A stretch of 64,000 bases of DNA, taken from Parcubacteria group bacterium Gr01-1014_30. GTDB lineage: Bacteria > Patescibacteriota > Minisyncoccia > Minisyncoccales > 2-12-FULL-40-12. The DNA lies in the NCBI GenBank assembly GCA_007376185.1, contig VMFS01000004.1, forward strand, positions 165 through 64,164, given 5' to 3'. The notes beneath the pieces were generated by a model. The model did no database searches and had not been told where the DNA came from. It saw only the letters and a program-made list of their open reading frames with translations. Positions 4,423-50,726 of this stretch are shown here, piece by piece. Each line of letters starts with the position of its first letter. The stretch's first letter is position 1. Both the position numbers and the translations under genes were made by a program.

Positions 4423-4500
4423 CCCCGTAATACAACTTCGACTCGCTTCGCGATTACAGGATTTTCTAAAAGAAAATCCTGTCGAAGATGATATATGGGG
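4423..4500 (+). promoter_or_regulatory. Candidate cis-regulatory RNA, copy 1 (leader of the HK-RR-pilB operon)
   Basis: The ends CCCCGTAATACAACTTC ... GAAGATGATATATGGGG are conserved with 43049-43128. The outer stem has a G-U pair only on the plus strand. The second stem covaries: CTTCGAC/GTCGAAG here versus CTTCCA/TGGAAG in copy 2. Confidence 0.5.
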
Positions 4501-4536
4501 TTTGCTTGTTTTTCAAACTGGTGTATAATACTTTTA

Positions 4537-5484: not shown

Positions 5485-5485
5485 T

Positions 5486-5854: not shown

Positions 5855-5863
5855 ATCATACTC

Positions 5864-10026: not shown

Positions 10027-10030
10027 CACC

Positions 10031-10059
10031 TTGACTTTTTCTTGGCAGAGGATTATAAT
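10031..10059 (+). promoter_or_regulatory. Sigma-70-type promoter
   Basis: TTGACT, 17-nt spacer, TATAAT. Confidence 0.55.
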
Positions 10060-10123
10060 TAAAATACTAACTAATTTTTGATTTCTTTGATTTCCCGCTG
10101 GCGTTAAACCTTAATAGAAGCCC

Positions 10124-10157
10124 AAACCCTAAAATAATCCGCAATTTAGGGTTTTTT
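10124..10157 (+). terminator. Intrinsic terminator/attenuator about 90 nt downstream of the promoter
   Basis: AAACCCTAAA-ataatccgca-TTTAGGGTTT followed by TTT. Confidence 0.5.
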
Positions 10158-10169
10158 GTGGTGTTTACG

Positions 10170-10201
10170 CATACGAAATTACGAAACTTTTACGAAAGTA
10201 C
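10170..10201. repeat. Left inverted repeat flanking the GxxExxY pseudogene
   Basis: CATACGAAATTACGAAA (17/17) plus a partial extension is the reverse complement of 10626-10657. Confidence 0.8.
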
Positions 10202-10209
10202 TAAAAATT

Positions 10210-10608
10210 ATGGACCAAACCAGTATCAAAAGGAAAGATTTGGTTTACCCAGATTTATGTTATCAAATTATTGGAATTCTTTTTGAAATATAAAAGCAAC
10301 TTGGCAGTAATTACCAAGAAAGATATTATCAAAGAATCGTCGCCAGAGAGCTTAAGAATTGTAAATTAAAGTATAAAGAGCAAGTTTTAACACCGTTAAC
10401 TTATAAAGGAGAACGAGTAGGGAATTACTTCTTGGATTTTGTAATAGACAATAAAATAGTTCTAGAGCTTAAGAAAGGTGAGAGATTTTCTAAAAAACAT
10501 ATTGAGCAGGTATACGCATATTTAAAAGCCGCTAATTTGGAGCTGGGCATAATTGCTTATTTTACAAAGCAGGGAGTAAGATTTAAAAGAATTGTTAATA
10601 TTTCATAG
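10210..10608 (+). pseudogene. GxxExxY / PD-(D/E)XK-family protein gene interrupted by an in-frame TAA
   Basis: The frame reads MDQTSIKRKDLVYPDLCYQIIGILFEI*KQLGSNYQERYYQRIVARELK...YKGERVGNYFLDFVIDNKIVLELKKGE...YLKAANLELGIIAYFTKQGVRFKRIVN. The stop codon is at 10291-10293. The ORF is missing from the ORF track because no ATG follows the stop. Confidence 0.6.
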
Positions 10609-10625
10609 TAAAATAATTATTTTTC

Positions 10626-10657
10626 GTATTTTCGTACCTTTTTCGTAATTTCGTATG
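10626..10657. repeat. Right inverted repeat flanking the GxxExxY pseudogene; it contains the rpoB start codon
   Basis: TTTCGTAATTTCGTATG. The last 3 nt are the rpoB ATG. Confidence 0.8.
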
Positions 10658-26832: not shown

Positions 26833-26936
26833 AGTTTAGCGTTTAGAGTTTGGCGATGCCCGTATCGTTTAGTGTTTAACGTTTAGCGGCCGCTAACCGA
26901 CTGACGATTGACGAAACGGGACGCGCTAAACGATAA
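26833..26936. repeat. About 105-nt palindromic GTTTAGCG/GCGGCCGC element (copy 2)
   Basis: Reverse-complement homologue of 13856-13962. The core is GGTTAGCGGCCGCTAA. Confidence 0.75.
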
Positions 26937-26945
26937 ACTATTGAC

Positions 26946-28631
26946 CTAAACTTCAATAACTACCGGCAAAATCATTGGCCTTCTCTGCGTTTTGGCATAA
27001 AAGAAGGCGCCGATTTTGTTCCGTATTTCGTCTTTAATGTAGCTCCAGTTCACAGCTCCTCCTGAGCCCGCGGCCCTGTCGACTATTTCAATCACTTTTT
27101 TTCTGGTTTGGTGCAGCAGGTCTTTTGATTCCCTAAGGTAAATGAACCCTCTGGAGATTATGTCGGGAGAACCCTTAACTTTACCTGTCTGTCTGTCAAC
27201 CACCGCCACAATCACGAACATTCCGTCTTTTGCTAGAACCTGCCGGTCTCTTAAGACCACGTTGCCGATGTCCCCGACCCCCAAACCATCAACAAAAACG
27301 TACTGAACCGGCACTTTTTTATTTTCTACCCTGAACCCTTTTTTGTCCAGCAAGCCCAAGGACCCGTTGTCAAGAATAAAAATGTTTTCTTTTGGGAAAC
27401 CAATGCTCTCAGCCACCTTGCCGGCTTCTCGCAGAAGGTAGTGGTTGGCGTAAACAGGCAGAAGGTATTTGGGTTTGACCTGTCTTATTAAAAGCTTGAT
27501 GTCTTCAATCAAGGCGTGCCCGCCGCCATGAACATCCATTATTTCTTTGTGGAAGACGTTCGCGCCCTGCCGGTAAAGAGTGTCCTTTAAGCGCTGGACG
27601 GTTCTTTCGTTGCCGGGAATCACCGAGGAAGAAAAAATGACCGTGTCTGATTTCTCAATTTTTATTTGTCGGTGCTCTCCCGAAGCTATTCGCATTAGAG
27701 CGGCTCTGTCCTCTCCTTGGGCTCCGGTAGCAACTACAATAACTTTATTGGAAGGGTAATTCTGAATGTTTTTGATATCAATCAAGACGTCTTGTCTGAA
27801 TTTCAAGTATCCGACTTTTTTTGCGATTTCAATGTTAAGCTTCATTGAGTAGCCGTCAAGCGCCACTTTTTTCCCGAACTCCTCGGCTATGAAAACAATC
27901 TGGCCTACCCTTTCAACCATGGAAGCGAAAGTGGCCACGATAATGCGCCCCGGCGCCTCCCTGATGATGTTTTTGATGTTCATCAAAACTTCGGATTCAG
28001 ACAACTGGTGGCCTTCTTTGGTTGAACCTAAGGATTCCATCATCAGCAAAGACGGCTTTTTGTTGGTGTTGAGACCCGCCAAGTGTTTGAAATCCGTTGG
28101 CTTTCCTTTAACCGGGTCCAAGTCGTACCTCCAGTCGCCAAGGTGTATAACGTTGCCAAAAGGCGTTTGCAGCACCACTCCGAGAGCGTCCATAATGCTG
28201 TGAGCCACTTTGAAGAACTTAATGTTAAAGGAGCCGAGTTTCAGTTCTTCGTCCAGGGACTTGATTTCGTGCGCTTTCAAGTATTTTCCTAGGTTCACTT
28301 CTTCAAGCCGCCTCTTTAGCAAAAACAAAGTCAGCTTACTAGCAAAAACGTGAGGCCAGCCCAAGCGCGGCAAGAGATGGGGAACGGCTCCAATGTGGTC
28401 AAGGTGTCCGTGGGACAAGATTACTCCACGGATGTTTCTCTTTTTGTCATCAAGATAGCGGATGTCTGGAATTATGTAGTCAATTCCCGGCATGTCTTCT
28501 TCGGGAAACTGGAGCCCCATATCCAAGATAACTATGTCTTGCCCAAGCTCAAAAACCGTGAGGTTGCGGCCAACCTCCTCCTGGCCCCCGAGGGGGATAA
28601 TTTTTAATACTTGTTTTGTTTGCTTAACCAT
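26946..28631 (-). CDS. rnj: Ribonuclease J
   Basis: LKIIPLGGQEEVGRN, HGHLDHIG, the beta-CASP region and a C-terminal domain. The start is placed at ATG 28631, because the ORF-track start at 28661 overlaps tRNA-Leu. Confidence 0.9.
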   Translation of the reverse strand: MVKQTKQVLKIIPLGGQEEVGRNLTVFELGQDIVILDMGLQFPEEDMPGIDYIIPDIRYLDDKKRNIRGVILSHGHLDHIGAVPHLLPRLGWPHVFASKLTLFLLKRRLEEVNLGKYLKAHEIKSLDEELKLGSFNIKFFKVAHSIMDALGVVLQTPFGNVIHLGDWRYDLDPVKGKPTDFKHLAGLNTNKKPSLLMMESLGSTKEGHQLSESEVLMNIKNIIREAPGRIIVATFASMVERVGQIVFIAEEFGKKVALDGYSMKLNIEIAKKVGYLKFRQDVLIDIKNIQNYPSNKVIVVATGAQGEDRAALMRIASGEHRQIKIEKSDTVIFSSSVIPGNERTVQRLKDTLYRQGANVFHKEIMDVHGGGHALIEDIKLLIRQVKPKYLLPVYANHYLLREAGKVAESIGFPKENIFILDNGSLGLLDKKGFRVENKKVPVQYVFVDGLGVGDIGNVVLRDRQVLAKDGMFVIVAVVDRQTGKVKGSPDIISRGFIYLRESKDLLHQTRKKVIEIVDRAAGSGGAVNWSYIKDEIRNKIGAFFYAKTQRRPMILPVVIEV

Positions 28632-28636
28632 ATAGG

Positions 28637-28722
28637 TGCCGAGGGTGGGATTTGAACCCACATGGAGTTTCCTCCACTACGCCCTGAACGTAGCGTGTCT
28701 AGCCAAATTTCACCACCTCGGC
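28637..28722 (-). tRNA. tRNA-Leu(CAG)
   Basis: GCCGAGG...CTACG TTCAGGG CGTAG, long variable arm TGGAGGAAACTCCAT, and T-arm GTGGG TTCAAAT CCCAC. Confidence 0.88.
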
Positions 28723-28734
28723 GCAGGGGCACAT

Positions 28735-29610
28735 TTATAACTTCAAGTTTCGCAGATACTCTTTAAATTCTTTACCTACTTTTTGGTGCCTCAAGCCAAA
28801 CTCAACAACTGTTTTTAGGTATTCCAATTTATTCCCGGTGTCGTAATAATTGCCGTTTTTTATTTCGCAAGCGTAAACCGGAAAATTTTTTTCAATGAGT
28901 TTGTTGATGGCGTCCACCAGCCAGATTTCTCCGTTTTTGCCGGGTTTAAGTTTTTCAATTATGCCAAAGATATCTGGCGGCAGAATGTAAGCTCCATGAG
29001 TGGCCAGGTTTGAAGGAGCTTCAGAGGGCAGAGGTTTCTCAACGATTCTTTTGATTCTGGAGACGTTCTTGTCAACCTTTTTTATTTCGGCTATGCCGTA
29101 CCTGGAAAGATTGTCTTTCGTTTCAATGCGGACGGCCGATATCACGGCCCCTTTATGTTTCATATAAACCTTAATCATCTGAGCCAATCTTGGAGGGTTA
29201 GCCGTGATAAACTCGTCGCCCCACAAAACGGCAAAGGGTTCTTTGGCCACAACCGATTTGGCAGTTAAAATCGGCATTGCGTTTCCGTAGTATTCTCCAT
29301 TTTGCCTGATATAAATAAAATTTGCCAGCTTGGTTATTTTTTTGATTTCGTGCAGTTCTTTGATTTTGCCGTTTTCTTCCAAAAACCTTTCCAGTTCCTG
29401 GGAACGGTCAAAGTGGTCTTCAATGGCGCGCTTTTGCTTGCCGGTTATGATAATGACGTCTTTGATGCCAGAGGATGCGGCTTCCTCCACCACGTATTGT
29501 ATGACGGGTTTGTCCACAATGGGCAGCATTTCTTTGGGTATGGCTTTTGTTTGAGGCAAGAATCTTGTTCCCCAACCTGCCGCCGGAATGATTACTTTGC
29601 GAATTTCCAT
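28735..29610 (-). CDS. galU: UTP--glucose-1-phosphate uridylyltransferase
   Basis: KVIIPAAGWGTRFLPQTKAIPKEMLPIVDKPVIQYVVEEA. Start taken as MEIRK at 29610; the alternative is 29634. Confidence 0.88.
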   Translation of the reverse strand: MEIRKVIIPAAGWGTRFLPQTKAIPKEMLPIVDKPVIQYVVEEAASSGIKDVIIITGKQKRAIEDHFDRSQELERFLEENGKIKELHEIKKITKLANFIYIRQNGEYYGNAMPILTAKSVVAKEPFAVLWGDEFITANPPRLAQMIKVYMKHKGAVISAVRIETKDNLSRYGIAEIKKVDKNVSRIKRIVEKPLPSEAPSNLATHGAYILPPDIFGIIEKLKPGKNGEIWLVDAINKLIEKNFPVYACEIKNGNYYDTGNKLEYLKTVVEFGLRHQKVGKEFKEYLRNLKL

Positions 29611-31592
29611 AATCTTTTTGTTTTGACGTGCCAACTTTCAAGACCTGAGAACCTTTTTGATGGGTCAGGTATCAGTTTTGTATGAATTCCTTTGACCTCT
29701 TTCGACACAAAGTACAAATAGTCCGGGCTGTACAAAAACACGGCGGGGGCGGCTTCAAGCACAATATCCTGCAACTTTTCCAGCTTTTCTTTTCTGGCTT
29801 CAAGGTCTTCCGACTGGCGGTTTTCTTCCAGCAGTTTGTCAGCTTCTTTGCTTTTGAAAGTCGTCAAGTTCAAACCAGGGTCTTTTGTCTGACTTGAGTG
29901 CCAGAAAGCAAAAGGGTCGGGCGTATTTCCTAGAGCTTGCCCGAACAATAAAGCTTCGTAATTTCTCGGCTTGATTACTTCTTTTTCAAGATGAACTAAG
30001 TCAAAAGCCAGAATTTCAACCTGGATGCCGAGCTCGGCCCACTGCTCTTTCAGAACTTTTGCGGCTTCAAGGAGATCTGGTTGATTTAGGGTGGTCAAAG
30101 AAAAGCTCAGTGTTTGAGTTTCCGCAGATTGCGGAAAACAGAGCTGGTTCAGTTTGTCTCTCGTGGTCTTGGCGACCAAGCCGGTGCCGCTTTCAAACCC
30201 CCACGGTTCCAAAATCTCCTCGGCGTATTTTTCCTGAAATTTGATAACCGCCTGCTTTGTTTTTTCCCCGAAATAACCGGTTACTTCTCCTTCGGGGTAA
30301 ACCTCTTCGTTTTTTGCCAAACATTTTTGCATTTCTTCAACTTGACTGCCTTGGCTTCCTGTTTGCAAGTCGCTCGTGAACTGGAAAGAAGAATTTTTCG
30401 TGATTGTTTTGGCCAAAACGCCTCCTTCTTGTTCAACAAAGCCCGCTTCTTTCAAAAGGTCTTTTGCAGCTTCAAGGTTGAATTCATACGTTACTGATGG
30501 TCTTTCCAAGTCATACACGCCTGGCATAACAGGAGAGTCCACTGTTTTCCCTTGATTTTGGAGGACTTTTGCTACGAGCTCGTCTTTGTCGGTGCCGTGA
30601 TTTAGAGCTTGTCTCACTTTCTGGTCTGCCAAAATTTTTGACTTCTCGGGGTTAAAGAACACGGCAAAATAGCGTGGCAGAGTTAAAGAGTACTTATTTA
30701 GGTCCTCTGGCTGGCCGTTGGTAAAGTTTGGCAGGTTGCCAAGAGCGAATCCGTCAATTTGGCCGTCTTTGTAGCCAAAAAGTAAATCCTCTTGGGTGAC
30801 ATAAAACCTGAAAGAAATTTGAGAGAGCAAAGGCGACTCTCCAAAGTAAAGCTCGTTTCTGGCGAGGGTTAAGCTTGTTATGCCTCCTTGTCTGTTTTGG
30901 TTAAGCCCCCGCAGTTTATAGGAGCCCGAGCCCACAGGATTCAGATTGTAGACCGTCAGGGGGAAGTTTTCAGGAGGAATGTTTTGCCAGACGTGCTTGG
31001 GAATTATTTTTTGGGTCAAGTTTTCCAAAAAGGGGCCGTAAGGGCTTCTCAAAAGGAATAAGATCTCTAACTCTGAAACCTTTTCCACGTCAACCCCCAG
31101 CCACAGAACCTGCAAAGGGCTTTTGTATGACGAGTTTTGTATTGTTTCAATCGTGAAAATGACATCGTCGGCAGTGAGTGGTTCTCCGTCAGACCAAAAA
31201 ACATCTTTTTTTAAGCGCACTCTGTAGGCCTTTCCGTCTTGTTCAATTTCGTAACTCTCGGTCAAATCCGTCACTAACTCACCTTGAGCTGAGTACTTTA
31301 GCAAGCCTGAAAAGACAAGCTCGGTTATGTCGCGGTCAACGTCGGAAGCGGCCGCGTAAACAGGATTTATGAATCTTGGCTGACCTACGACTCCTTCCCT
31401 AAAAGTTCCGCCTTGAGCTGGCAAAACCTCGGTGTTTTTGAAGTAAAAGTTAACGGCCAGGAAAATTAAACTGCTAGAGAACAGAGACGTGAAAACAACG
31501 AACAAAACCTTTTCTAGCCGCGACAGGATTTTAAAAAATTGCCTCCACCCCGCAAGACGCGTAAGTTGTTTTAGTCCTTTACTATAATCCAT
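29592..31592 (-). CDS. Extracellular solute-binding protein (family 5, peptide/nickel type) with an inserted peptidoglycan-binding-like segment
   Basis: 666 aa. N-terminal TM anchor and SBP_bac_5-like sequence. The internal segment VEEMQKCLAKN...VTGYFGEKTKQAVIKFQEKY resembles PG_binding_1. Confidence 0.7.
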   Translation of the reverse strand: MDYSKGLKQLTRLAGWRQFFKILSRLEKVLFVVFTSLFSSSLIFLAVNFYFKNTEVLPAQGGTFREGVVGQPRFINPVYAAASDVDRDITELVFSGLLKYSAQGELVTDLTESYEIEQDGKAYRVRLKKDVFWSDGEPLTADDVIFTIETIQNSSYKSPLQVLWLGVDVEKVSELEILFLLRSPYGPFLENLTQKIIPKHVWQNIPPENFPLTVYNLNPVGSGSYKLRGLNQNRQGGITSLTLARNELYFGESPLLSQISFRFYVTQEDLLFGYKDGQIDGFALGNLPNFTNGQPEDLNKYSLTLPRYFAVFFNPEKSKILADQKVRQALNHGTDKDELVAKVLQNQGKTVDSPVMPGVYDLERPSVTYEFNLEAAKDLLKEAGFVEQEGGVLAKTITKNSSFQFTSDLQTGSQGSQVEEMQKCLAKNEEVYPEGEVTGYFGEKTKQAVIKFQEKYAEEILEPWGFESGTGLVAKTTRDKLNQLCFPQSAETQTLSFSLTTLNQPDLLEAAKVLKEQWAELGIQVEILAFDLVHLEKEVIKPRNYEALLFGQALGNTPDPFAFWHSSQTKDPGLNLTTFKSKEADKLLEENRQSEDLEARKEKLEKLQDIVLEAAPAVFLYSPDYLYFVSKEVKGIHTKLIPDPSKRFSGLESWHVKTKRLWKFAK

Positions 31593-31623
31593 AACTCATC
31601 GGTTTGGCTTTCTGCGCCTCCAA

Positions 31624-31839
31624 CTATATTACGAGATTCAACAAAGAGAGCAAGATGAACAGGGTTCCCAGAAAAACGGTTGCCCAAAAAAGCTTTTTCT
31701 CAAAGCCTCGTTTGGTGGCGTAAAATCCGCCGCCTTCTCCCCCTCCGCCAAAGGCAGAACCCAAGGCCTGACCTTTTTGCTGCAAAAGAATGGCGACAAT
31801 AAGCAAAACCGCAACAACAAGTTGAATATAGATTAACAT
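31624..31839 (-). CDS. secG: Preprotein translocase subunit SecG
   Basis: 71 aa, two TM helices, LLQQKGQALGSAFGGGG. Confidence 0.8.
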   Translation of the reverse strand: MLIYIQLVVAVLLIVAILLQQKGQALGSAFGGGGEGGGFYATKRGFEKKLFWATVFLGTLFILLSLLNLVI

Positions 31840-31846
31840 TTGAGGG

Positions 31847-32278
31847 TTAAAACTTGGATTTTTCTGGCAGCCACCTCGTCAGAATGAAGTTTATGCCCCA
31901 GACAATAAGGGCTGTGAGAAAAAGCGAGGAGAAGCCTTCAATTACGAGTTCTGGCGAGAAAACTTTTGTCAGCCACACCAAGAACATTAATATTACCAAG
32001 CTGAAAAGGTCAAGGGTGATAATGCGCAAAGGCAGGGTGATTTTTTTGAGCAGGGGTTTGACAAAATGGTTCAAGATACCCAACAAGGCGCCTACAAAGA
32101 CCAGAGATCTTAGAAATTCACTCAAGGTGGCGGCGTTTTTTGGGAGGATGAAAAATGGTCCTGTGAAATCAACTCCGGGAACGTATTTTTGCGCTAGAAA
32201 AAGACCCAGTACTCCAGAAACAATTTGCAAAAACAATCTCCACAACACTCTTTGATGATAGCATAGTTGTAAAGTCAA
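31847..32278 (-). CDS. Phage-holin-4_2/DUF360 family membrane protein
   Basis: 143 aa, 4 TM helices, ILNHFVKPLLKKITLPLRIITLDLFSLVI. The ORF-track start is TTG, so the true start is uncertain. Confidence 0.6.
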   Translation of the reverse strand: MTLQLCYHQRVLWRLFLQIVSGVLGLFLAQKYVPGVDFTGPFFILPKNAATLSEFLRSLVFVGALLGILNHFVKPLLKKITLPLRIITLDLFSLVILMFLVWLTKVFSPELVIEGFSSLFLTALIVWGINFILTRWLPEKSKF

Positions 32279-32290
32279 GTCAATAAGAGG

Positions 32291-32328
32291 AAAAGCCCGG
32301 TGAAGGATTGGACCTCTACCGGGCTTTT
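32291..32328 (-). terminator. Strong hairpin terminator at the left edge of the GC-rich island
   Basis: AAAAGCCCGGT-16 nt-ACCGGGCTTTT. Confidence 0.65.
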
Positions 32329-32395
32329 GTTGATAGGTGGGTAGCTTTTTGGCGGGGCAGGATGCCCCTCCAGGCGGGATTTCGGAGCGGCATGA

Positions 32396-33139
32396 CTACT
32401 CCTTCATGCGGGGACTGTTGATGCCGCCACCGCCGGTGGAGTAGATCGTGGTCTGTTCCTCGCGCCGCTCGCGGCGCGGGCTCCCGTTGCGGTAGTACCG
32501 CGACGAGAAGTTTTTTTCAACCAGAGCCCAGGTGCGCAGGAGTTTCTGCGCAGGGCCCTCGCCCTTTAGAGAGGCGTAAGAGAGAACTGTTTCTTCCCCT
32601 GGGACGTTCGCGAGCCGCTCGGGATTGTACACCTTTGCGACTCGGAATTTTTCAAGCCCCGTCTCCTCGAGAACGATCCCGAGGGGGACCTCGGGGTCCC
32701 CGCTCCGGTAACGGAACCGGAGCATCCCGAGCACGAGGACCCCTTTGATGCGGCCATAGTTTAAGGTCCATAGCGCGGCCTCGCGCTCCCAGGGCGTGGG
32801 GGAATATCCCAGCTCTTGGGCGAGGACTGTCCAGGCACTCATGGCCTGACGGACCCTTTCGTCAAGGTCCGTCACGCTTTTGGGCAGGTTGCCCAAGCCA
32901 CGGGCGAACTCTCCGGGTTCCGCGTCCACCACCTCACCGTTCACGGTGAGGAGTGCCGGCCCGGGGATGAACCCCAAGGGCCAGAACGTGGCTCTGCCGC
33001 CTGACTGGACCGCCGTCGCGTAGAGGCGGCAGAAGTCGTTCCAGTCGCGGGCGCCGGCTTTGGTGTCGCCGGCAGAGATGCGGGATTGGCTTCTGTCTGG
33101 CGCTGGCGGCGGGGGAAGACTGAATTTTTTGCTACCCAT
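32396..33139 (-). CDS. Hypothetical protein, GC-rich, with no motif I recognise
   Basis: 247 aa. Canonical SD (TAAGGAGGTATT-ATG). The long shadow ORFs in other frames are typical of high-GC coding DNA. Confidence 0.7.
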   Translation of the reverse strand: MGSKKFSLPPPPAPDRSQSRISAGDTKAGARDWNDFCRLYATAVQSGGRATFWPLGFIPGPALLTVNGEVVDAEPGEFARGLGNLPKSVTDLDERVRQAMSAWTVLAQELGYSPTPWEREAALWTLNYGRIKGVLVLGMLRFRYRSGDPEVPLGIVLEETGLEKFRVAKVYNPERLANVPGEETVLSYASLKGEGPAQKLLRTWALVEKNFSSRYYRNGSPRRERREEQTTIYSTGGGGINSPRMKE

Positions 33140-33345
33140 AATACCTCCTTATGAGTTTTATGCTGGCCTCTTTGGTTATCATAACCTCGGAGTTTAAGGG
33201 GGATCCTTACCTGCATAAATATGGGTTGAGCTAACTGGTAAACATAATGCGAATCTACGAATGCATGCGATATGTCAGCCAAGTAGCTCCACCCATCTAA
33301 GGAGGACTGAACTAACTTTCAAAGAGCAATATTGCATTATATCAC

Positions 33346-33374
33346 TTGACATTTAATTTGTCAAGTGTTAGACT
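33346..33374 (+). promoter_or_regulatory. Promoter with a palindromic -35 (possible operator)
   Basis: TTGACA, 17-nt spacer, TAGACT. The -35 is part of TTGACAtttaattTGTCAA, and a further TGTCAATTAAAT lies at 33391-33402. Confidence 0.5.
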
Positions 33375-33445
33375 ACCACATCACGCACATTGTCAATTAA
33401 ATTATACTGAATTACTGAATTTCAAGCGAAGAAAGGAGGAACTTA

Positions 33446-34942
33446 GTGGAGACCACTCAGCTTTTGTTTCAACCGGGCCGGCGGCCGGGGAGTTGGTCCT
33501 CAGGTTATCAAGGAAGACCGGTGCAGCTTTGCATGCAGAGGTTTTGCAACCTTTGCGACTTAAAGGAAAGAGAACAGCTCCGTTCATTCAGCGGAGGCAA
33601 GCTTGAAGTTAAGCTCACTGCGCATCGCCGTCCAGCTTTCTGGGAGTGGGAGGAGAGGCCGTTTTACCGTGCACACATTGTTAAGGTTTTACCGCCAGAA
33701 TTTCCAACTGGCAAAGTTGTTGACGAGGGCTTTGAGATTGACGGTTCACGTCTTAACCTCGTTGTCTACAGGACGCCTCAAGGCGTCATCCTGGTTGACC
33801 CGGGCTATGTAGGCTTTGAACAGGGATACGACCCCTACGTTGGCCGCTTAATGGCAGACCATAAGATTATTGCTTCTGTGGTCACGCACGGTCATTTGGA
33901 CCACTGGAACGCGCTTGGCCAGACAACGGGCCCCGTTTTTATGCCAAGAACAGCTTACAGGTTAGCATCAATGCATGCGTCCTGGACCAGTGAGTCACAG
34001 CCGCCACAGCTTGACAGTGCGTTGAGAAACGCCAGAGATAATCTTATTTTCCCCGGGAAGCCGGTTCTTTTGGACGAGCTGCCGGTTAACATTGACACGT
34101 TTCATTTGCCCCATTCCATTCCTGAAACAATGGGTTTGGTGATTAGAGGCGAGAGGGGCAGAGCCGTGCACCTTGGCGACTTTAAGTTCAACGGCTTTGG
34201 CGCCAAAGCCAAAGCTGAAACCATTGCAAGGCTCCAGCAGATTGCCAAAGAACCAGTTGATTTTCTGGCTTTGACAATCTACAACGCCCACGTTCCGGGC
34301 TTTGTGCCCATTGAGGACTTGGTTGTGGATGCTTTGACCGACATTATGGTTAAAGCAGAAGGCAGAGTTGTCATTACCTGTTTCTCCACAAACCTTGACA
34401 GAGTTCTTCGCTTGGCTAAAATTGCCAGGATTTTGGGCAGGCAGGTCAGTTTTACCGGAGCCGGAATGCAGAATTGTCGGGAAATGATCGGTTTTGAGGA
34501 AACCGGTTACTCAGGCAAAGAGGTTGCGTTTGTCACCGGTTGCCAGGCCGAAGAAAGATCATTTCTTTGGAACATTGCGCAAGGCACTGCGGCGATGGAC
34601 CGAAGCGACACCTTGGTTTTCTCTTCTCGCTGCATTCCAGGTAACGAGGAAAGGTTAAGAGAACATTACACTCGCCTTAGGCCAAAAGTTGGCCGGTTGA
34701 TTGTTACCAGAGGCGAAGTTTCGCAACTCGGCCTGCAGGGCCTTGGGACTGAAGAGGTTTTCACTCATGTCTCTGGACATGAGTATGGAGATGGCATTCG
34801 CTTGGCCTTGGAAATCTTGCGGCCCAAGAAAGTTATTGCCTGGCCGCAGACATCGCCTCAAATCGAGGCGTTCCGCAAGATTTGCGAGGAGGTCGGGGGC
34901 ATTGAGATTCTTTCCGAAGACGAAAGAGTGATTGACATTTAA
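33446..34942 (+). CDS. Divergent RNase J-like / beta-CASP metallo-beta-lactamase-fold protein
   Basis: 498 aa. GTG start preceded by AAAGGAGG. HxHxDH motif VTHGHLDHW, a later FHLPHS, a beta-CASP-like region, HVSGH near the C-terminus, and a ~115-aa N-terminal extension containing CMQRFCNLC. Confidence 0.75.
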   Translation: METTQLLFQPGRRPGSWSSGYQGRPVQLCMQRFCNLCDLKEREQLRSFSGGKLEVKLTAHRRPAFWEWEERPFYRAHIVKVLPPEFPTGKVVDEGFEIDGSRLNLVVYRTPQGVILVDPGYVGFEQGYDPYVGRLMADHKIIASVVTHGHLDHWNALGQTTGPVFMPRTAYRLASMHASWTSESQPPQLDSALRNARDNLIFPGKPVLLDELPVNIDTFHLPHSIPETMGLVIRGERGRAVHLGDFKFNGFGAKAKAETIARLQQIAKEPVDFLALTIYNAHVPGFVPIEDLVVDALTDIMVKAEGRVVITCFSTNLDRVLRLAKIARILGRQVSFTGAGMQNCREMIGFEETGYSGKEVAFVTGCQAEERSFLWNIAQGTAAMDRSDTLVFSSRCIPGNEERLREHYTRLRPKVGRLIVTRGEVSQLGLQGLGTEEVFTHVSGHEYGDGIRLALEILRPKKVIAWPQTSPQIEAFRKICEEVGGIEILSEDERVIDI

Positions 34943-34953
34943 GATTAAAGTAT

Positions 34954-34991
34954 AAGGCGTCAGCTATAGCTGACGCCTTAATTATTTTTTA
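34954..34991 (+). terminator. Intrinsic terminator at the right edge of the island
   Basis: AAGGCGTCAGC-tata-GCTGACGCCTT followed by AATTATTTTTT. A second hairpin, TGGGCTTGTGC...GCACAAGCCCA, lies at 34994-35028. Confidence 0.7.
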
Positions 34992-35032
34992 TTTGGGCTT
35001 GTGCGAGGACGAACTTAGCACAAGCCCATCCT

Positions 35033-36469
35033 TTAGTATATGCGCCAGAGGAAACGCCAAGAGGGTTCTTTCACAACGTCAATGAACTTGTTCAAAACTT
35101 CTTCCAGAGACGGCAGTTTTAAGCTTGCTTTTGTGTCAATGGGGATGCCTGAAAACTTTGGCGGCATTGTGCCTGAAGCCAGCGTGAACATATGCGACAA
35201 AAAAGTGGTTGCATAACATCCCTTTGGCAAAACAAAGTTTATTACCGCTCCTTCTGGCACAATAGTGTAATTTAAGACCTGGGCGTGTTCCACGGTTTTT
35301 TGTTCTCTTTTTCTGGGGTTTATAAAAGGAAACGGCTCAACGTTTTTCAAAACAAAAGTTTGTGAGAAAAGTTCCAGGGGCTTTAGAAACTTTTCGTAAA
35401 GCCGCCAGGTTTTGGGGTCTTTTTCCAAAACCAGAGGAATAGTTTTTGGCGGCACCTTTCCTTCTTTTAAGTGGAAAGAAAGCATTTGGTTGAAAAGAAG
35501 CGCCGTGAAAGAAGTCAGCCACAACTGGGTTACTCTTGGAATTTGATTGAGCGCTCCCACAAAATCGTTGGGGTGTTCAACTAAATAGCCGGTCATTTGC
35601 AGTTCGTCCTGAAAGGTTGCCGGGAAAAACTCTATAATTTGAGCTATCTCTTCCCAGTTTCCCCATAGCTTTTCTATGTCTTTTCGCATTTGGCTAAAGT
35701 ATAAAGATTCCCGCTCTCCTGGAAAGCAGAAAGCGGCTTTGACCGCGCTTTCGTAGTCGCCCTTTAATATCAAAAGTCCTGAAAGGGCGTTTGTTAAGCG
35801 CGGAATGCCAAACCTCTGCAAATAATAGTAGTTGTAAAAGCCGCTTTTTTGCACTTTTGCCAAGCGAGCCAAAAACTCGTCTTTTTTGAAGTTGGCGCTG
35901 GTTCTCACCAAGATTGTAAACTGGTTAGCGCGAAGACCGCCAAGAAAGAGCTCTCTTTTTGAGGAAAAAACGTTTTTTATAAAAAAGTATTCGCTTGAGG
36001 CGTCATAGAGTTTCTCTATGTCAACGCCTTTCAGAGAAATCAGCTGGCTGGTTATGGCGTGTTTGTCTTTGATGCCGGCAAGTTTAATTTTGGTTTCAAC
36101 ATCTTCAGGTTTTATGCGGAGTTTTTGCGCCAGTTCTCCCACAGCTTCAATGGTTGACAGGCCGCATTTGACCAAGGTGGCGTACAAGACCGGGTCCTCG
36201 GGCAGGTAGTCCCGCTTTTTGTGCATAAACTTGTCCGGGAAAACATTGGTCCATTCACCGTCCGGAGTGATTTCTTCCACGATGAAGTCCTGGGGCCAAA
36301 GTTTCAAATACCCCTGGGGCAGGGGCTTGTCAGACGGAATAAAAATCCCGTACTTTTTCAAAAAGTCGGGAGAGTCAAGGGTATTTTTAATTCCGAAAAG
36401 GTGCGAATGGAGGCGGGCCGCTTCCCTGAAGTTTTTTCTTTCAATCGCTTTCGCTTCCCATATAGTCAT
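35033..36469 (-). CDS. truD: tRNA pseudouridine synthase TruD/Pus7 family
   Basis: LWPQDFIVEEI N-terminal motif and the catalytic GIKDKHAITSQ. Confidence 0.8.
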   Translation of the reverse strand: MTIWEAKAIERKNFREAARLHSHLFGIKNTLDSPDFLKKYGIFIPSDKPLPQGYLKLWPQDFIVEEITPDGEWTNVFPDKFMHKKRDYLPEDPVLYATLVKCGLSTIEAVGELAQKLRIKPEDVETKIKLAGIKDKHAITSQLISLKGVDIEKLYDASSEYFFIKNVFSSKRELFLGGLRANQFTILVRTSANFKKDEFLARLAKVQKSGFYNYYYLQRFGIPRLTNALSGLLILKGDYESAVKAAFCFPGERESLYFSQMRKDIEKLWGNWEEIAQIIEFFPATFQDELQMTGYLVEHPNDFVGALNQIPRVTQLWLTSFTALLFNQMLSFHLKEGKVPPKTIPLVLEKDPKTWRLYEKFLKPLELFSQTFVLKNVEPFPFINPRKREQKTVEHAQVLNYTIVPEGAVINFVLPKGCYATTFLSHMFTLASGTMPPKFSGIPIDTKASLKLPSLEEVLNKFIDVVKEPSWRFLWRIY

Positions 36470-36482
36470 AATGCGGGGAGTA

Positions 36483-37535
36483 TTACTCGACTAACTTTAA
36501 GCTCATTTTGTGCTCTGCTGGGCGCATTTCCAGGATTTCAAAGTTGTAAATTTTATCCACTTTCAGCTTTTCTTCCATCAGGGTCTGTGAGCCAAATTCA
36601 GAGATGTGACATAGTCCCTGGATTTCATCGGCTATCTGCACAAAAGCGCCAAAAGGATTTAGCTTTGTTACTTTGCCAGCAACTTTATCTCCTTTTTTGT
36701 ACACATCTTCAATTCCTTCCCAAGGGTCTTTTTTGAGAGCTTTTAGCGATAGAAAAACCTTGTCGTCTGAAATTCCGATTATTTTGGCTTTGACTTTTTG
36801 GCCGACTTTCACTATTTGCAGTGGGTCTTCAATGATTTTCCAGTCAAGCTCCGAAATGTGAATTAGGCCTTCCAAACCATCATCGCCGAACTTAATGAAA
36901 GCGCCAAACTCCACAATGCCCGTAATTTTCCCTTCAACAATCTGGCCGACTTCGTATTTTTTAAGAAGCTCTCTTATTTTGCCAGACTCCTTTGATTTTT
37001 CAGACAAAATAAGTTTCCCGGCCTTTGGGGCGAGGTCCAGCACCTGAACTTGGAGCTCTTTGCCCAAGAACTTTTGCAGTTCTTTCAAGATTTTGCCAGA
37101 GTCGGCGTCTTTAACTTTGGGGTAGTTTGCCGCTGCAAGCTGGGAGACAGGTAAAAAAGCGGGAATGCCCGAAACCTCTGCCAATAGTCCTCCTTTGTTG
37201 GCTCCTGTGATTTTAACTTGAATCACGTCTCCTTTTTCTTTCTTTTGCCTCAGTTGTTCCCAGGTTAACTCTTTGCCAGCTTGATTTGGGGACAGCTCAA
37301 TGTATCCCTGTTCGTTTTTCAGCTCAACTATTTTAGCAAGCAGTTTATCACTTACTTTAAGGTTGCGCAAAGTGTCCTTTGCTTCTTTCAGTTCCCGGCC
37401 GTAGATTATGCCAGAACCCCACGGCCCGAGGTCCAAAAAAACAGCGCCCCTTTCCTTGGCAATAACCTTGCCCTCAACAATGTCGCCGGCTTTTGGAGGT
37501 TTCAAAAAATTGTTCTGATCAAGCAAAGCTTTCAT
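36483..37535 (-). CDS. rpsA: 30S ribosomal protein S1 (four S1 domains)
   Basis: Repeated S1 motifs (GDIVEGKVI, GDVIQVKITG, GQIVEGKITGIVEFGAFIKF, GDKVAGKVTKLNPFGAFVQI). The ATG at 37535 is preferred over the ORF-track TTG at 37571. Confidence 0.85.
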   Translation of the reverse strand: MKALLDQNNFLKPPKAGDIVEGKVIAKERGAVFLDLGPWGSGIIYGRELKEAKDTLRNLKVSDKLLAKIVELKNEQGYIELSPNQAGKELTWEQLRQKKEKGDVIQVKITGANKGGLLAEVSGIPAFLPVSQLAAANYPKVKDADSGKILKELQKFLGKELQVQVLDLAPKAGKLILSEKSKESGKIRELLKKYEVGQIVEGKITGIVEFGAFIKFGDDGLEGLIHISELDWKIIEDPLQIVKVGQKVKAKIIGISDDKVFLSLKALKKDPWEGIEDVYKKGDKVAGKVTKLNPFGAFVQIADEIQGLCHISEFGSQTLMEEKLKVDKIYNFEILEMRPAEHKMSLKLVE

Positions 37536-37722
37536 ACTGCTTAATATTACATAATCCTTTAATTTTTTCAAGAGACGTGGTATAATAAAACAAGAATCCA
37601 GAATACAGAATCTGGAATCTGGAATTGGAATAAAGAAGATAGAATAAAGGGGAGTTCCCTGAATTCTGAATTCAAAATTCCCATTCTATATTCTATATTC
37701 AAGATTCTGAATTCTTCGACTT

Positions 37723-38421
37723 ATGCAGATAACTTGGAAAGGTCAGGCGTGTTTTCAAATAACGGCAGTACCCGATAAAAACAGCCAGGTTAAAATTGTT
37801 ATTGATCCTTATTCCGAAGAGATCGGCTTAAGATTGCCCAAATTGGAAGCCGACATTGTTTTGAGCACTCATAACCACTACGACCACAACAACGTGAAAG
37901 CGATAAGCCCTTCGGCAGGGGCTTTAACTGAGCTCAGCCGAACGTCCTCAGGGCAAGCGCATTTTTTGGTTGAAGGACCTGGCGAGTATGAAGCCAAAGG
38001 AGTGATTATTCAGGGCATTCACTCCTGGCATGACGAAAAAGAAGGAGCCGAAAGGGGAAGTAACACCATTTACACCCTTGAGGCTGAAGACCTGCGTCTT
38101 TGCCACTTAGGAGATCTTGGCCAAAAGGAGCTGACATCTGAACAGTTGGAAAAAATCGGTCAAGTGGATATTTTAATGATTCCTGTGGGAGGAGTTTACA
38201 CCATCGACGCCAAAGGGGCCTTGAAAGTAATGTCACAGATTGAACCCAAAATTGCCATACCGATGCACTACGCTTTGCCCAAATTAAAAGTTAAACTGGA
38301 TGGAATTGATAAGTTTCTGAAAGAAGTGGGCCTAAAGCGCATTACGCCCGAAGCCAAACTTGTGGTCAAGAAAAAAGACCTTTCCGAGGAGGAAGCAAAG
38401 ATAGTTTTGCTGCAGCCTTAA
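37723..38421 (+). CDS. MBL-fold metal-dependent hydrolase (UPF0173-like)
   Basis: MQITWKGQACFQI..., STHNHYDHN, HLGDLG. Confidence 0.75.
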   Translation: MQITWKGQACFQITAVPDKNSQVKIVIDPYSEEIGLRLPKLEADIVLSTHNHYDHNNVKAISPSAGALTELSRTSSGQAHFLVEGPGEYEAKGVIIQGIHSWHDEKEGAERGSNTIYTLEAEDLRLCHLGDLGQKELTSEQLEKIGQVDILMIPVGGVYTIDAKGALKVMSQIEPKIAIPMHYALPKLKVKLDGIDKFLKEVGLKRITPEAKLVVKKKDLSEEEAKIVLLQP

Positions 38422-45003: not shown

Positions 45004-47154
45004 TTATTTTGGCCAATTTTCCACCATTAGACACGTTTTTTTATTCTTTATCGGTAATTTTTGGTAGATTTCCTCTGTGATAAAAGGCATAAAAGGATGG
45101 AGGAGTTTTATCAAGGTTTCGTGGAACTTAAAAAGCAGGGCTTTGGAGACAAGTCCTTTTTTGTAATCTTCAATAACCTTGTCTGCGTAGTAATGCCAGA
45201 AAAAGTGGTACAAACGCTCGGCGGCGCGGTGGAATCTGAAACTTTCAAGGTCGCGGGTAATTTCTTTAACAAGTTTTTTAAGCTTTTGAAGGTTCGTTTT
45301 GTCTTTGGAGCTTGTTTTATATTTTGGGTTTTGTGTTTTGGATTTTGTGTTTTGTAGGACAAACCGCGTAGCATTCCACACTTTGTTGGCGAAGTTTCTC
45401 ATTCCTTTAATTTTCTCTTCAGAGATGGTTGAATCAGCTCCAGGAGCAGTATTGAAAATCAAAGCGAATCGAAGAGCGTCCGTACCGTATTTTGCGGTCA
45501 TATCAAGTGGATCTATAACGTTTCCTAGAGATTTGGACATTTTCCGGCGTTGTTCATCTCGCACCAATCCATGAAGATAAACGGTTTTAAAGGGAATTTC
45601 TCCAAGCAAAAATTGGCTCATCAATATCATTCTTGCAACCCAAAAGAAAATAATATCGTAGCCGGTTTCGAGCACATAGGTTGGATGATATTTCTTTAAA
45701 TCTTTAGTCTTCCCTGGCCAGCCTAAGGTAGAAAAGGTCCAAAGTCCAGATGAGAACCAAGTGTCTAAAGTATCTTTAAATTGCTCATATCCTTGCCCAG
45801 GCTTAGTTCTACTAACAATATAATCCAAATCATCGCCAGTAGGAGCTGGTGGTACATACCAAACAGGAAACCTATGTCCATACCAAATTTGCCTTGAAAT
45901 ACTCCAATCTCGAAGATTTTTAACCCAATTTAAATAAACTTTTTCAAAGCGTTTTGGAAATATCTTTATTTTTCCTGATTTAACAGCATCGCTTAGTAAT
46001 TCCTTAAGCGTTTTAGTTTTCCTTTCTGGAATAGGTTTGCTTACACTGACAAAAAACTGATTCCTATGAGGAAGGTACTCAATTTTTCCTCCTGATCGTT
46101 GCGATTTTGGCTTGTTATGTTCAATTTCCTCTGGTTCTTTTTCTAGCAACTCGTTACTGCGAAGCCATTCTACGACTCTCTCCTTTGCCTCATCCACCTT
46201 AAGACCTTCTAATATACCCGCGTTATGGTTCATGCGATCGACCCCGTTGATTACTTGTATTTTTCTAAGGCCGTGCCTATCGGCAATTTCTTCATCAACT
46301 TTACTATGATATGGCGTAATTCCCACTGCGCCTGTTCCAAATTGCATATCGATAGAAGGATCTCCTATAATTTCTATAGACAAATTTACTCCAACAAATT
46401 TAATATTTTCATATTTCTTACCTATATATTGCCTATAACGCTTATCTCTAGGATTTACAGCTACTGCTGTATCTCCGACCTTCGTCTCGGGACGAGTTGT
46501 AGATATAGATATAGGGAAATCCTTTGAGTAACGGAAGGTATATAGCTTATCCTTACAAACTTCATACTCAACCTCTTGATCATCCACGGCAGTTTGATTT
46601 TTAACATCCCAATTAACAACCTTACCAAGACCTATGTAAATAATGCCTTCTCCTTTTTTAGGATGCATTTTAATAAAGGCCTCTTCAACCGCATTAATAC
46701 GTTTTTTATCAAGAGTGAATGCTAGACGAGACCAATCAAGTGAAGCTCCCAGAGAACGTAGTTGTTTCAAAATGGCGTCTTTATTTTTCAAAGCAAAATC
46801 ATTAACAAGATCGATGAATTCTTGACGTTTTTCACCATAATCGCTTTTCCGTACGCCGCTTTCCTTAAGAAACTTTGTTTCTGTAGCTATGGAAGCGTGG
46901 TCGGTTCCGGGAATCCAGAGAGTTTTTCTTCCCAGCATCCGTTGATAACGGATAATTATGTCTTCTATGGTTACGGTAAGGGCATGTCCCATATGGAGTG
47001 TTCCGGTAACGTTGGGCGGGGGGAGAACCATTGAGAATGGTTTTTTATGGCGCTTTGGCAGCTTATCGGGATTAAAAAAGCCCGACTTTTCCCAGAGCTT
47101 GTAGATTTTTCCTTCAACTTCTTTTGGATTATAGGTCTTTCGCAGTTCTTCCAT
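45004..47154 (-). CDS. valS: Valine--tRNA ligase (short form)
   Basis: PPPNVTGTLHMGHAL (HIGH) and KMSKSLGN (KMSKS), with a ValRS-type editing domain. 716 aa with no C-terminal coiled coil. A low-complexity insert TKSKTQNPKYKTSSKD is encoded by TTTTGTGTTTTGG-type words at about 45310-45360. Confidence 0.85.
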   Translation of the reverse strand: MEELRKTYNPKEVEGKIYKLWEKSGFFNPDKLPKRHKKPFSMVLPPPNVTGTLHMGHALTVTIEDIIIRYQRMLGRKTLWIPGTDHASIATETKFLKESGVRKSDYGEKRQEFIDLVNDFALKNKDAILKQLRSLGASLDWSRLAFTLDKKRINAVEEAFIKMHPKKGEGIIYIGLGKVVNWDVKNQTAVDDQEVEYEVCKDKLYTFRYSKDFPISISTTRPETKVGDTAVAVNPRDKRYRQYIGKKYENIKFVGVNLSIEIIGDPSIDMQFGTGAVGITPYHSKVDEEIADRHGLRKIQVINGVDRMNHNAGILEGLKVDEAKERVVEWLRSNELLEKEPEEIEHNKPKSQRSGGKIEYLPHRNQFFVSVSKPIPERKTKTLKELLSDAVKSGKIKIFPKRFEKVYLNWVKNLRDWSISRQIWYGHRFPVWYVPPAPTGDDLDYIVSRTKPGQGYEQFKDTLDTWFSSGLWTFSTLGWPGKTKDLKKYHPTYVLETGYDIIFFWVARMILMSQFLLGEIPFKTVYLHGLVRDEQRRKMSKSLGNVIDPLDMTAKYGTDALRFALIFNTAPGADSTISEEKIKGMRNFANKVWNATRFVLQNTKSKTQNPKYKTSSKDKTNLQKLKKLVKEITRDLESFRFHRAAERLYHFFWHYYADKVIEDYKKGLVSKALLFKFHETLIKLLHPFMPFITEEIYQKLPIKNKKTCLMVENWPK

Positions 47155-50256: not shown

Positions 50257-50329
50257 GGGCGACTAGCTCAGCGATTAGAGCGTCCGCCTTACACGCGGAA
50301 GGCCTCAGGTTTGAATCCTGAGTCGCCCA
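50257..50329 (+). tRNA. tRNA-Val(UAC)
   Basis: GGGCGAC TA GCTC AGCGATTA GAGC G TCCGC CTTACAC GCGGA ... GTCGCCC A. Confidence 0.9.
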
Positions 50330-50361: not shown

Positions 50362-50649
50362 GCCGCGGTAGCTCAATGGTAGAGCGCGTCCCTAAAGAAC
50401 TGCTCTTTGGGGCCTTCTATAGAAATATAGATTGAATAACTGGGTTAACTCGGGGAAACTTCTTTTAGAGAACAATCCCGAGCCAAGTCCCGAGATTTTA
50501 ATCGAGGGAAAGGTGTAGAGACTATCCCGAAAGGGAGTACTCTGATAAAAGTCAGGGGAAACGCCCAGCATCCAATATTTCCGGATGGTGATATAGTCCA
50601 AAATAAACGGAAGAGGACGGCGTTGGGTGTTCGATTCACCCCCGCGGCA
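50362..50649 (+). tRNA. Intron-containing tRNA, read as tRNA-Phe(GAA)
   Basis: Exon 1 (50362-50393) is GCCGCGG TA GCTC AATGGTA GAGC G CGTCC CT. Exon 2 (50610-50649) is GAAGA GGACG GCGTT GGGTG TTCGATT CACCC CCGCGGC A. The spliced product is a normal 72-nt cloverleaf. Confidence 0.75.
50394..50609 (+). ncRNA. Group I intron (216 nt) in the anticodon loop
   Basis: In P1, CCCT|AAAG pairs with CTTTGGGG, giving a U-G wobble at the 5' splice site. P2 is TCTATA-GAAA-TATAGA. The core string AAAGGTGTAGAGACTA followed by TCCC-GAAA-GGGA resembles the Azoarcus/IC3 catalytic core. The intron ends in G. Confidence 0.75.
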
Positions 50650-50654: not shown

Positions 50655-50726
50655 GCGGGTGTAGTATAACGGCCATTATGCGATCTTGCCAAGATCGAGA
50701 AGAGGGTTCGACTCCCTTCACCCGCT
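50655..50726 (+). tRNA. tRNA-Gly(GCC)
   Basis: GCGGGTG...CGATC TTGCCAA GATCG...TTCGACT...CACCCGC T. Confidence 0.88.

Follow-up and report, generated by a model that had tools for sequence, protein, structure and literature searches.

A resident RNase J paralogue and its orphan, GC-rich partner gene in Parcubacteria, with a predicted leader RNA that masks the partner's ribosome-binding site

Contig VMFS01000004.1 of Parcubacteria group bacterium Gr01-1014_30 carries, within the 64,000-nt stretch analysed here (referred to as the window), two divergent genes located between a secG/DUF360 pair and truD. One encodes a 498-aa RNase J paralogue (33446-34942, + strand; here the nuclease) and the other a 247-aa orphan protein (32396-33139, - strand; here the partner). 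Comparison with related loci indicates that the two genes form a module resident in, and restricted to, a subgroup of Parcubacteria, and not an insertion. The two genes are proposed to form a self-regulated module in which the partner modulates the nuclease, a tentative reading whose likelihood falls somewhat short of even. The module may serve in housekeeping or in conflict; these two readings overlap with the proposed model and are not exclusive of it.

The head-to-head pair has been found beside truD in approximately 20 distinct related Parcubacteria loci, originating from various samples and pipelines, which bears out the suggestion of a preliminary description of the window that nuclease and partner belong to one module, and makes them a genuine, co-occurring functional pair. 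The order common to these loci is an S1-truD segment, the diverging nuclease and partner genes, and then ftsH or DUF360/secG. The partner side adjoins either ftsH together with a PseudoU_synth_2 gene and L19, or DUF360/secG as in the window; there, secG and a DUF360/holin-like gene lie on the partner side, and truD and an S1-domain gene on the nuclease side. The same slot and orientation are observed in L001, L004, L005, L007, L009, L017, L018, L020, L021, L024, L027, L029 and L031, and the pair also occurs in L002, L006, L008 and other loci of L017-L024; among these, L009 belongs to a Nealsonbacteria metagenome-assembled genome and L031 is distant. The shared slot on the truD side extends down to 27-42% protein identity, empty sites not having been searched for, and in eight of 15 partner cases homologues of partner and nuclease were present on contigs of the same size.

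Recent acquisition of a foreign island, or a chimeric assembly, both of which had been considered in the preliminary description, could account for the extreme composition and alien codons of the partner gene, the sharp GC boundaries and the hairpins on both sides of the block. Each is nonetheless extremely unlikely. The Logan assembly of run SRR8863434 matches window positions 26913-37937 with 100% identity over 11,025 nt and spans both junctions, and the same architecture is present in the approximately 20 contigs mentioned above, which contradicts a chimera. An accessory insertion is contradicted by the conserved slot in relatives whose module proteins are only 27-55% identical between loci, by a GC excess that recurs across these loci, by the native codons of the nuclease gene and by the lack of mobility hallmarks: no direct repeats of the att type flanking the module, no integrase among its neighbours and no phage or plasmid similarity were found, the latter including a tblastn comparison of the partner against phages and plasmids. 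There is no tRNA junction, and the nearest tRNA lies at 28637-28722. The hairpins themselves fold as strongly as had been described, and their supposed role as island boundaries gives way to that of ordinary terminators. The partner gene has an intrinsic terminator at 32291-32329 (- strand), where a hairpin of 11+4 bp precedes UUUUCC (-23.8 kcal/mol, z -7.3); the nuclease gene has one at 34953-34980 (+ strand), with a 12-bp stem and a T run after it (-21.3 kcal/mol, z -7.1); and the hairpin at 34994-35028 (- strand; -19.9 kcal/mol, z -4.7) lies just past the stop codon of the convergent truD and belongs to that gene, not to the module.

The larger of the two proteins had been recognised in the preliminary description as an RNase J-type metallo-beta-lactamase with the motifs THGHLDHW and HVSGH and N-terminal cysteines, and this assignment is upheld by a match to the RNase J beta-CASP family PF22505 (E = 3e-14; 53.2 bits against a cut-off of 27). 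Its catalytic body (33746-34942, + strand) comprises the metallo-beta-lactamase and beta-CASP parts with intact motifs: D118, H148xH150xD152H153, H223, D245 and H441xxG444H445 are all present, their metal-binding residues are invariant among 22 family members (D245 nearly so), and the HxSGH motif of the 5'-phosphate pocket is conserved in the same alignment. The closest solved structures by sequence are those of bacterial RNase J (3bk1, E 1e-23), followed by archaeal RNase J at 5e-13. An AlphaFold model with a predicted local distance difference test (pLDDT) score of 85 has RNase J structures as all of its best Foldseek matches (E 1e-25 to 1e-17, template modelling (TM) score of about 0.6), with CPSF73-type enzymes ranking next (E 1e-14). 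Whole-protein family cut-offs are not reached, with 111 bits against 400 for TIGR00649 and 108 bits against 820 for NF047419. The dimerisation domain PF17770, which is C-terminal, is absent from the nuclease and from all close homologues, and PF07521 is absent from the nuclease as well. Preceding the catalytic body is an extension of approximately 100 aa (33446-33745, + strand), beta-rich in the model, in which C29, C34, C37 and H77 are invariant in the 22-sequence alignment; these residues probably constitute a zinc site. Taken at face value, the motifs and the model point to a catalytically competent RNase J paralogue that has gained an N-terminal domain with three cysteines and one histidine and lost the C-terminal dimerisation domain. 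In the Candidate Phyla Radiation (CPR), proteins marked by this N-terminal Cys/His domain thus make up a putative new subfamily of RNase J.

When compared to bacterial RNase J (RNase J1/J2; TIGR00649; 3bk1, 3zq4, 4xww), the paralogue shares the metallo-beta-lactamase plus beta-CASP fold, the metal motifs and HxSGH, but it scores far below the family cut-offs, is devoid of PF17770 and PF07521, has the Cys/His extension and coexists with a full-length canonical rnj. That second gene, already noted in the preliminary description, was confirmed at 26946-28661 with its C-terminal domain, 5 kb from the paralogue. Archaeal RNase J (mpy-RNase J; 5haa, 5ws2) resembles the paralogue in its length of about 450-500 aa and in having no bacterial-type C-terminal domain; the paralogue is closer in sequence to the bacterial enzymes, and its Cys/His extension had no counterpart in the archaeal matches obtained. 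A literature search found no description of this paralogue or of the leader RNA of the partner gene. A distant branch of the paralogue, 35% identical, is represented by L030 (4837-7539), where the Cys/His extension is kept in another context and with no partner gene; there it adjoins an ornithine carbamoyltransferase (OTCase) gene, both having a GC content of about 0.56 compared to 0.39 in the neighbouring aminoacyl-tRNA synthetase gene. A third gene of the metallo-beta-lactamase fold (Lactamase_B_3) is located in the window at 37723-38421 (+ strand), just beyond S1, and is syntenic in L005, L007 and L031, bringing to three the genes of this fold in the neighbourhood, canonical rnj included.

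The partner had matched nothing recognised in the preliminary description, and it has kept that status in all comparisons made since. No match was obtained in Pfam, NCBIfam, PADLOC or PHROGs, and sequence and profile searches against the PDB returned nothing even at E <= 10. The family is tiny: of the 1.84 billion cluster representatives compared, 36 match at E <= 1e-3. Its members share the motifs LGFIPGPA, MPRFRYRxGDPE and GPxQKLLRTWALME, and the N-terminus is variable and often basic among homologues. Substitutions between close homologues are concentrated at the third position of codons (in one comparison, 21, 19 and 54 at positions 1, 2 and 3), an excess which shows that the gene is translated; this, the motifs and the model mark the partner as a real protein. 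Its AlphaFold model is confident, with an alpha/beta arrangement and a core pLDDT of about 95, and the best TM score in Foldseek comparisons with the PDB and BFVD was at most 0.18; the modelled fold is possibly new.

A 306-nt control region separates the two start codons. The partner and its leader are preceded by a perfect TTGACA-17-TGnTATAAT promoter (33336-33364, - strand) that agrees with the consensus at 12 of 12 positions, and an equivalent perfect promoter can be read in most other full-length intergenic regions. The nuclease promoter, TTGACA, 17 nt and TAGACT (33346-33374, + strand), is present as previously described; the palindromic operator that had been placed over it is instead explained by two face-to-face -35 boxes of the overlapping divergent promoters. 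Such divergent -35 pairs are kept across loci in two geometries, face-to-face or back-to-back. A further TGTCAA half-site was likewise located, and this third copy is not conserved in the closest relative. The 5' untranslated region (UTR) of the nuclease gene (33375-33445, + strand) is unstructured, with a minimum free energy (MFE) of -5.7 kcal/mol and z +1.25.

Both genes also carry canonical Shine-Dalgarno (SD) sequences, and the earlier claim that the surrounding genes are without them holds for nearly all genes of the window. For the nuclease, a putative SD, GGAGG, is located at 33435-33439 (+ strand), 6 nt before the GTG start, and for the partner the putative SD TAAGGAGG was read in the sequence at 33144-33151 (- strand). 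An SD-like core of only 4 nt near any candidate start was detected in eight of 39 window genes, two of the eight being the module genes, of which one was counted at a start other than the canonical one; the remaining cases lie mostly at doubtful internal starts. In essentially all loci read, both module genes keep canonical GGAGG at canonical spacing. About half of Parcubacteria have been reported to be without the 16S anti-SD motif (PMC9297842), with which the near-absence of SD sequences in the window is consistent. The module SDs are accordingly regarded as putative ribosome-binding sites, the 16S rRNA of the organism being located outside the window. The resulting picture, in which they are the only two clearly SD-led genes of the window, resembles the situation of rpsU (bS21), which is under SD-dependent autoregulation in the SD-poor Bacteroidia: in both cases an SD-poor genome keeps strong SDs on very few regulated genes. 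The module differs in its genes and lineage, and in that one of its SDs is paired in cis to an anti-SD borne by the leader.

This pairing is part of a structured 5' leader of the partner gene (33140-33329, - strand, with a transcription start inferred at about 33329). The leader is 193 nt long in the window and approximately 110-240 nt across loci, with a conserved layout: a 5' GCUCUUUnAAA element, CCUCY, a long hairpin (P2), a second hairpin (P1) with UUAAAY on its 3' side, GGAGG and the start codon. In the window these correspond to the anti-SD CCUCCUUA (33298-33305, - strand), an upstream complement of the partner SD; P2 (33221-33296, - strand), a near-perfect duplex of 15-20 bp; P1 with a UUAAAC bulge (33157-33219, - strand); and the SD UAAGGAGG (33144-33151, - strand), which is paired with the anti-SD in the fold. 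The window leader has an MFE of -57.7 kcal/mol (z -3.4). When folded separately, 14 of 14 leaders have one and the same minimum-energy structure, a three-way junction in which the SD pairs with the upstream CCUCY and encloses P2 and P1. In the alignment of 11 leaders, paired cells make up 96.5% and 11 of 24 pairs have double-sided changes, compared to 5.0 in shuffles, none of 500 of which reached 11; slid controls gave at most 0.125 against 0.389. G.U pairs are in the sense orientation. A covariance model, R1, has exactly one sense match per locus, including loci outside its training set: the untrained window sequence is matched at 33159-33306 (- strand, E ~1e-3), as are the untrained L004, L005, L007, L021, L027, L028 and L031, and no second copy was found in the 64 kb. 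SD and anti-SD columns were not aligned by MAFFT, and support for the closing helix P0 consists of the 14 separate folds and of changes from GGAGG/CCUCC to GGAGA/UCUCC read by eye, not of the covariance model. A pairing of the conserved 5' element GCUCUUUUAAA with the UUAAAC bulge of P1 was also considered and did not hold in the window sequence.

The predicted fold indicates that the partner SD is masked in the ground state. The leader is a previously undescribed, covariation-supported cis-regulatory RNA, fixed upstream of one gene family. In Rfam 15, nothing relevant was matched over 32200-35100 at E <= 1, and no family reached its gathering score on the leader when the window was compared. 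The leader resembles translational riboswitches and RNA thermometers in that a complementary segment, conserved upstream and supported by covariation, sequesters the ribosome-binding site in the ground state; it differs in belonging to no known aptamer class and in occurring only before the partner gene family. Autoregulated ribonuclease leaders, such as that of E. coli pnp, which RNase III cleaves, and the rne and rnc 5' UTRs, offer a parallel in logic: a long structured 5' leader stands on a gene of an RNA-decay module, feedback operates through processing, and the P2 duplex would be an RNase III-type substrate. Here, however, the leader is on the partner gene and not on the nuclease gene, and its architecture is its own, with no Rfam match.

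A leader overlapping the ribosome-binding site is also what would be expected if the pair were devoted to housekeeping RNA maturation, with the paralogue processing a specific stable RNA (rRNA or tRNA) and the partner acting as an RNA-binding cofactor that represses its own translation through the leader, as occurs with ribosomal-protein and RNase leaders. The neighbourhood, with S1, truD, the PseudoU_synth_2 pseudouridine synthase, L19, rbfA and infB, the basic N-terminal tails of many partner homologues and the strong constitutive promoters on both genes agree with such a function. It remains a rather unlikely explanation: fast, mosaic evolution would be atypical of core maturation factors, the genome already has a canonical rnj, the leader is similar to no Rfam family, and the gene-wide excess of GC and folding described below is not explained.

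The block had been described as a two-gene compositional island. This applies fully to the partner gene, with a GC content of 0.637 and a third-position GC content (GC3) of 0.77, an extreme outlier among window genes (n=45; mean GC 0.452, sd 0.042; mean GC3 0.487) at +4.4 sd. The nuclease gene is mildly raised (GC 0.512, GC3 0.55), at +1.4 sd only. In the partner, CTC reaches a fraction of 0.50 compared to 0.08, ATC 1.0 compared to 0.20, TTC 1.0 compared to 0.33 and CGC 0.48 compared to 0.16, whereas nuclease codons are native-like, with TTG, AGA, ATT and TTT preferred. Since only the partner has alien codons, the compositional island is essentially one gene and not two. The GC step is sharp, rising at about 32330 and falling at the start codon (33139), with a GC content of 0.63 in 32300-32499; the block begins with the GC-rich partner 3' UTR (32330-32395, - strand), whose local hairpin is not significant (z -1.7). 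Elsewhere in the window, low-GC stretches occur at 45004-47154 (- strand), a 716-aa gene with a GC3 of 0.34, and at 10001-11000, with a GC content of 0.35-0.39 against a window mean of 0.45.

Across loci the partner gene has a GC content of 0.42-0.69, the nuclease gene 0.41-0.52 and the flanks 0.32-0.44; the partner stands above the nuclease gene and both above the flanks, which are always AT-rich, and the partner excess over the flanks is present in nearly every locus. GC3 of the partner is 0.6-0.86 in many lineages, and its GC at four-fold sites varies from 0.85 in L004 and L010 to only 0.33 in L009. Given that the proteins are 27-55% identical, silent sites are saturated and a leftover foreign GC signal would have decayed; the excess must therefore be actively maintained and does not reflect foreign ancestry. 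An ancient transfer followed by slow amelioration was dropped on the same grounds, silent sites being saturated and GC3 nevertheless remaining as high as stated above. Also dropped was translational selection for NNC codons, the EF-Tu-like gene and other probable high-expression genes having a GC3 of about 0.50. Among the homologues found, none was seen in a GC-rich donor genome. The candidate donor, a 1.26-kb contig labelled 'Desulfobacca sp.' that carries a partner homologue (L028; GCA_013824495.1, PNNX01001003.1), was rejected: it has AT-rich flanks (0.285-0.42) and a Parcubacteria-type leader, and is probably mis-binned. A sharply bounded, GC-rich and codon-alien gene in an AT-rich genome thus need not be foreign.

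The partner coding sequence also folds more strongly than expected. In the window its MFE is -360.8 kcal/mol, with z scores of -5.6 (60 permutations) and -6.9 (16) against synonymous-codon permutation and of -6.1 (16 shuffles) and -8.5 (20) against dinucleotide shuffles. Against synonymous-codon permutation, nine partner genes gave z scores of -4.3 to -12.1, segments of nuclease genes were intermediate (-0.9 to -6.3), and six non-module genes (truD, S1, canonical rnj, EF-Tu-like, ftsH and OTCase) gave +0.2 to -3.5; each partner value lies below each non-module value. Several hairpins keep their place in the alignment while synonymous changes in the two arms compensate each other, as from GCCAC...GTGGC to GCTAC...GTAGC and from CCGGA...TCCGG to CCGCA...TGCGG. 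For the GC enrichment of the partner, the most direct explanation at hand is that stable stems have been selected for within an AT-rich background.

Pairwise comparisons suggest that the module evolves fast and in concert, with a history partly decoupled from its flanks. Identities of partner and nuclease are correlated (r 0.77-0.88), as are those of the flanking genes with each other (0.84-0.85), while correlations with the flanks are only 0.20-0.58 for the nuclease and 0.45-0.76 for the partner. Mean identity is 45% for the partner compared to 65% for truD, and between L005 and L021 truD is 90% identical while the module proteins are only 68% and 54% identical. In one population (L011, L020, L022 and L023) the partner coding sequence is 3.4-12% divergent, against 0.2-0.9% for the leader and neighbouring genes and 2.1% for one 140-nt intergenic stretch. 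When L011 (1497-2315) was compared with the other three, three mosaic blocks were detected, in the partner coding sequence only (nt 1-150, 416-670 and 682-745); one is closest to another lineage and another is identical in contig L026. Such a history at a fixed site fits allelic exchange within the clade, which could add GC-biased gene conversion. Two further sources of the mosaics were dropped: a diversity-generating retroelement, as the blocks contain all substitution types, are not adenine-specific and span the whole gene, and gene conversion from a silent cassette, no second partner-like or GC-rich segment being present within the 64-kb window.

These data bear on a further explanation, in which a conflict module has been fixed in a chromosomal hotspot. 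The paralogue would be a toxic or defensive effector and the fast-evolving partner its antidote or sensor, engaged in an arms race with a phage or a host organism and kept available through RNA-level control. The co-evolution of a nuclease with an orphan partner that changes faster than the flanks, mosaic blocks restricted to the partner coding sequence, a pattern reminiscent of diversifying or balancing selection, a module history decoupled from the genes on both sides and the elaborate translational gating of the partner are all in keeping with this. Nuclease-immunity and toxin-antitoxin pairs, such as RnlA-RnlB and colicin nuclease-immunity proteins, similarly combine a nuclease with a small, fast- and co-evolving partner and mosaic partner alleles. 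The module differs from them in its divergent promoters, its fixed core-genome slot and its lack of mobility. A defence-system match, as might have been hoped for from the preliminary description, did not materialise, with zero PADLOC-DB v2 families at E <= 1 and no PHROG match for either protein. Instead of two small co-transcribed genes, as in type II toxin-antitoxin systems, there are divergent genes with their own promoter and terminator each, the nuclease measuring 498 aa. The pair has moreover kept one slot among housekeeping RNA and ribosome genes over deep divergence, with no mobile-element genes, repeats or phage and plasmid similarity, and many close strain pairs are without partner variation. 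A conflict role is held to be rather unlikely, on a par with the housekeeping reading.

The mosaic tracts within the coding sequence and the decoupling of the module from its flanks are equally what would be left by GC-biased gene conversion at a recombination hotspot, of which GC richness could be a passive by-product with no RNA-level function of the coding sequence. The gradation of the excess from partner to nuclease to flanks, its variation between lineages and the strand symmetry of the folding excess agree with this possibility. It does not predict more folding than in synonymous-codon permutations, nor hairpins that keep their position through compensatory changes; the leader and promoter, although placed between two GC-enriched genes, stay AT-rich, and a GC3 shift of +0.3 to +0.45 is far above the effect usually produced by gene conversion in bacteria. 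As a sole cause, it appears improbable.

Under the self-regulated model, the partner would be a cognate modulator of the nuclease, either inhibitor or adaptor, that binds it. The strong consensus promoter would drive the leader, in which the three-way junction would lock the partner SD with the upstream CCUCC, leaving partner translation off by default and switching it on when the leader is opened or processed. Cleavage might take place between the anti-SD and P2, or within the P2 duplex, for example, through the paralogue or RNase III. Genomes of the CPR generally keep rnc, rnj and pnp (PMC12641178), and the retention of rnc and rnj together with the long P2 duplex makes an RNase III site plausible. 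Partner supply would in this way track ribonuclease activity, establishing a negative feedback. The heavily folded partner mRNA may in turn resist the same nuclease, its GC richness arising from selection for stable stems and probably being reinforced by recombination-associated GC-biased gene conversion.

Several points weigh against this model. The protein-protein interaction, the trigger that would open the leader and the nuclease resistance of the partner mRNA are deduced from sequence, and a divergent layout, as opposed to an operon, is unusual for a nuclease-inhibitor pair. Antisense MFE is approximately equal to that of the sense strand, and owing to this symmetry a function of the sense RNA is not proven; a DNA-level or antisense cause of the folding excess is possible. 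Control genes reach z -3.5, making the separation from partner genes real and not enormous, and shuffle numbers were modest (12-60). The GC excess is minor in some members, as in L009 with 0.42 compared to 0.38. Mosaics were observed in one population only, other close pairs having identical partner coding sequences, and as metagenome assembly can create a chimeric consensus, the mosaic alleles may be an artefact. Finally, the loci were gathered by searching for the pair itself, and do not establish that it is universal in the clade.

A more specific and much more speculative proposal takes into account that a copy of the ribosomal anti-SD, CCUCCU, is built into the partner leader itself, in a window where only the module genes are clearly led by an SD. 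The paralogue and its modulator might constitute a dedicated circuit coupled to the state of the ribosomal 3' end or to specialised initiation, with the partner mRNA GC-structured so as to evade the neighbouring nuclease. Such a circuit is very unlikely; if true, it would provide the first instance in which the need to withstand a cognate RNase has moulded the composition of an entire gene. Should the feedback hold, the module would provide a compact example of a cell restraining a second, potentially dangerous ribonuclease, and of an mRNA sequence evolving to escape a specific nuclease. Apart from either outcome, the GC anomaly of the partner recurs clade-wide at one locus together with excess nucleic-acid folding and local recombination, and an RNase J subfamily, an orphan protein and a leader RNA predicted to mask a ribosome-binding site become available as testable objects in the poorly understood CPR.

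Additional features have been recorded in the window and in related contigs. On the contig of the closest relative (L004), S1 is separated from truD by a PDDEXK_3 gene (1173-1568), and beyond the secG/DUF360 pair there is a gene for a HicA toxin (6727-6951); neither of these two genes is present in the window. The Nealsonbacteria contig L009 has an ftsH gene interrupted by an intein (3465-6737; 1090 aa, PF14890). In the window, a group I intron (Rfam RF00028) was detected at 50384-50609 (+ strand) with 65 bits, the gathering score being 50; the intron is situated between the tRNA matches 50257-50329 and 50655-50726 of a tRNA cluster, and may be part of an intron-bearing tRNA gene.

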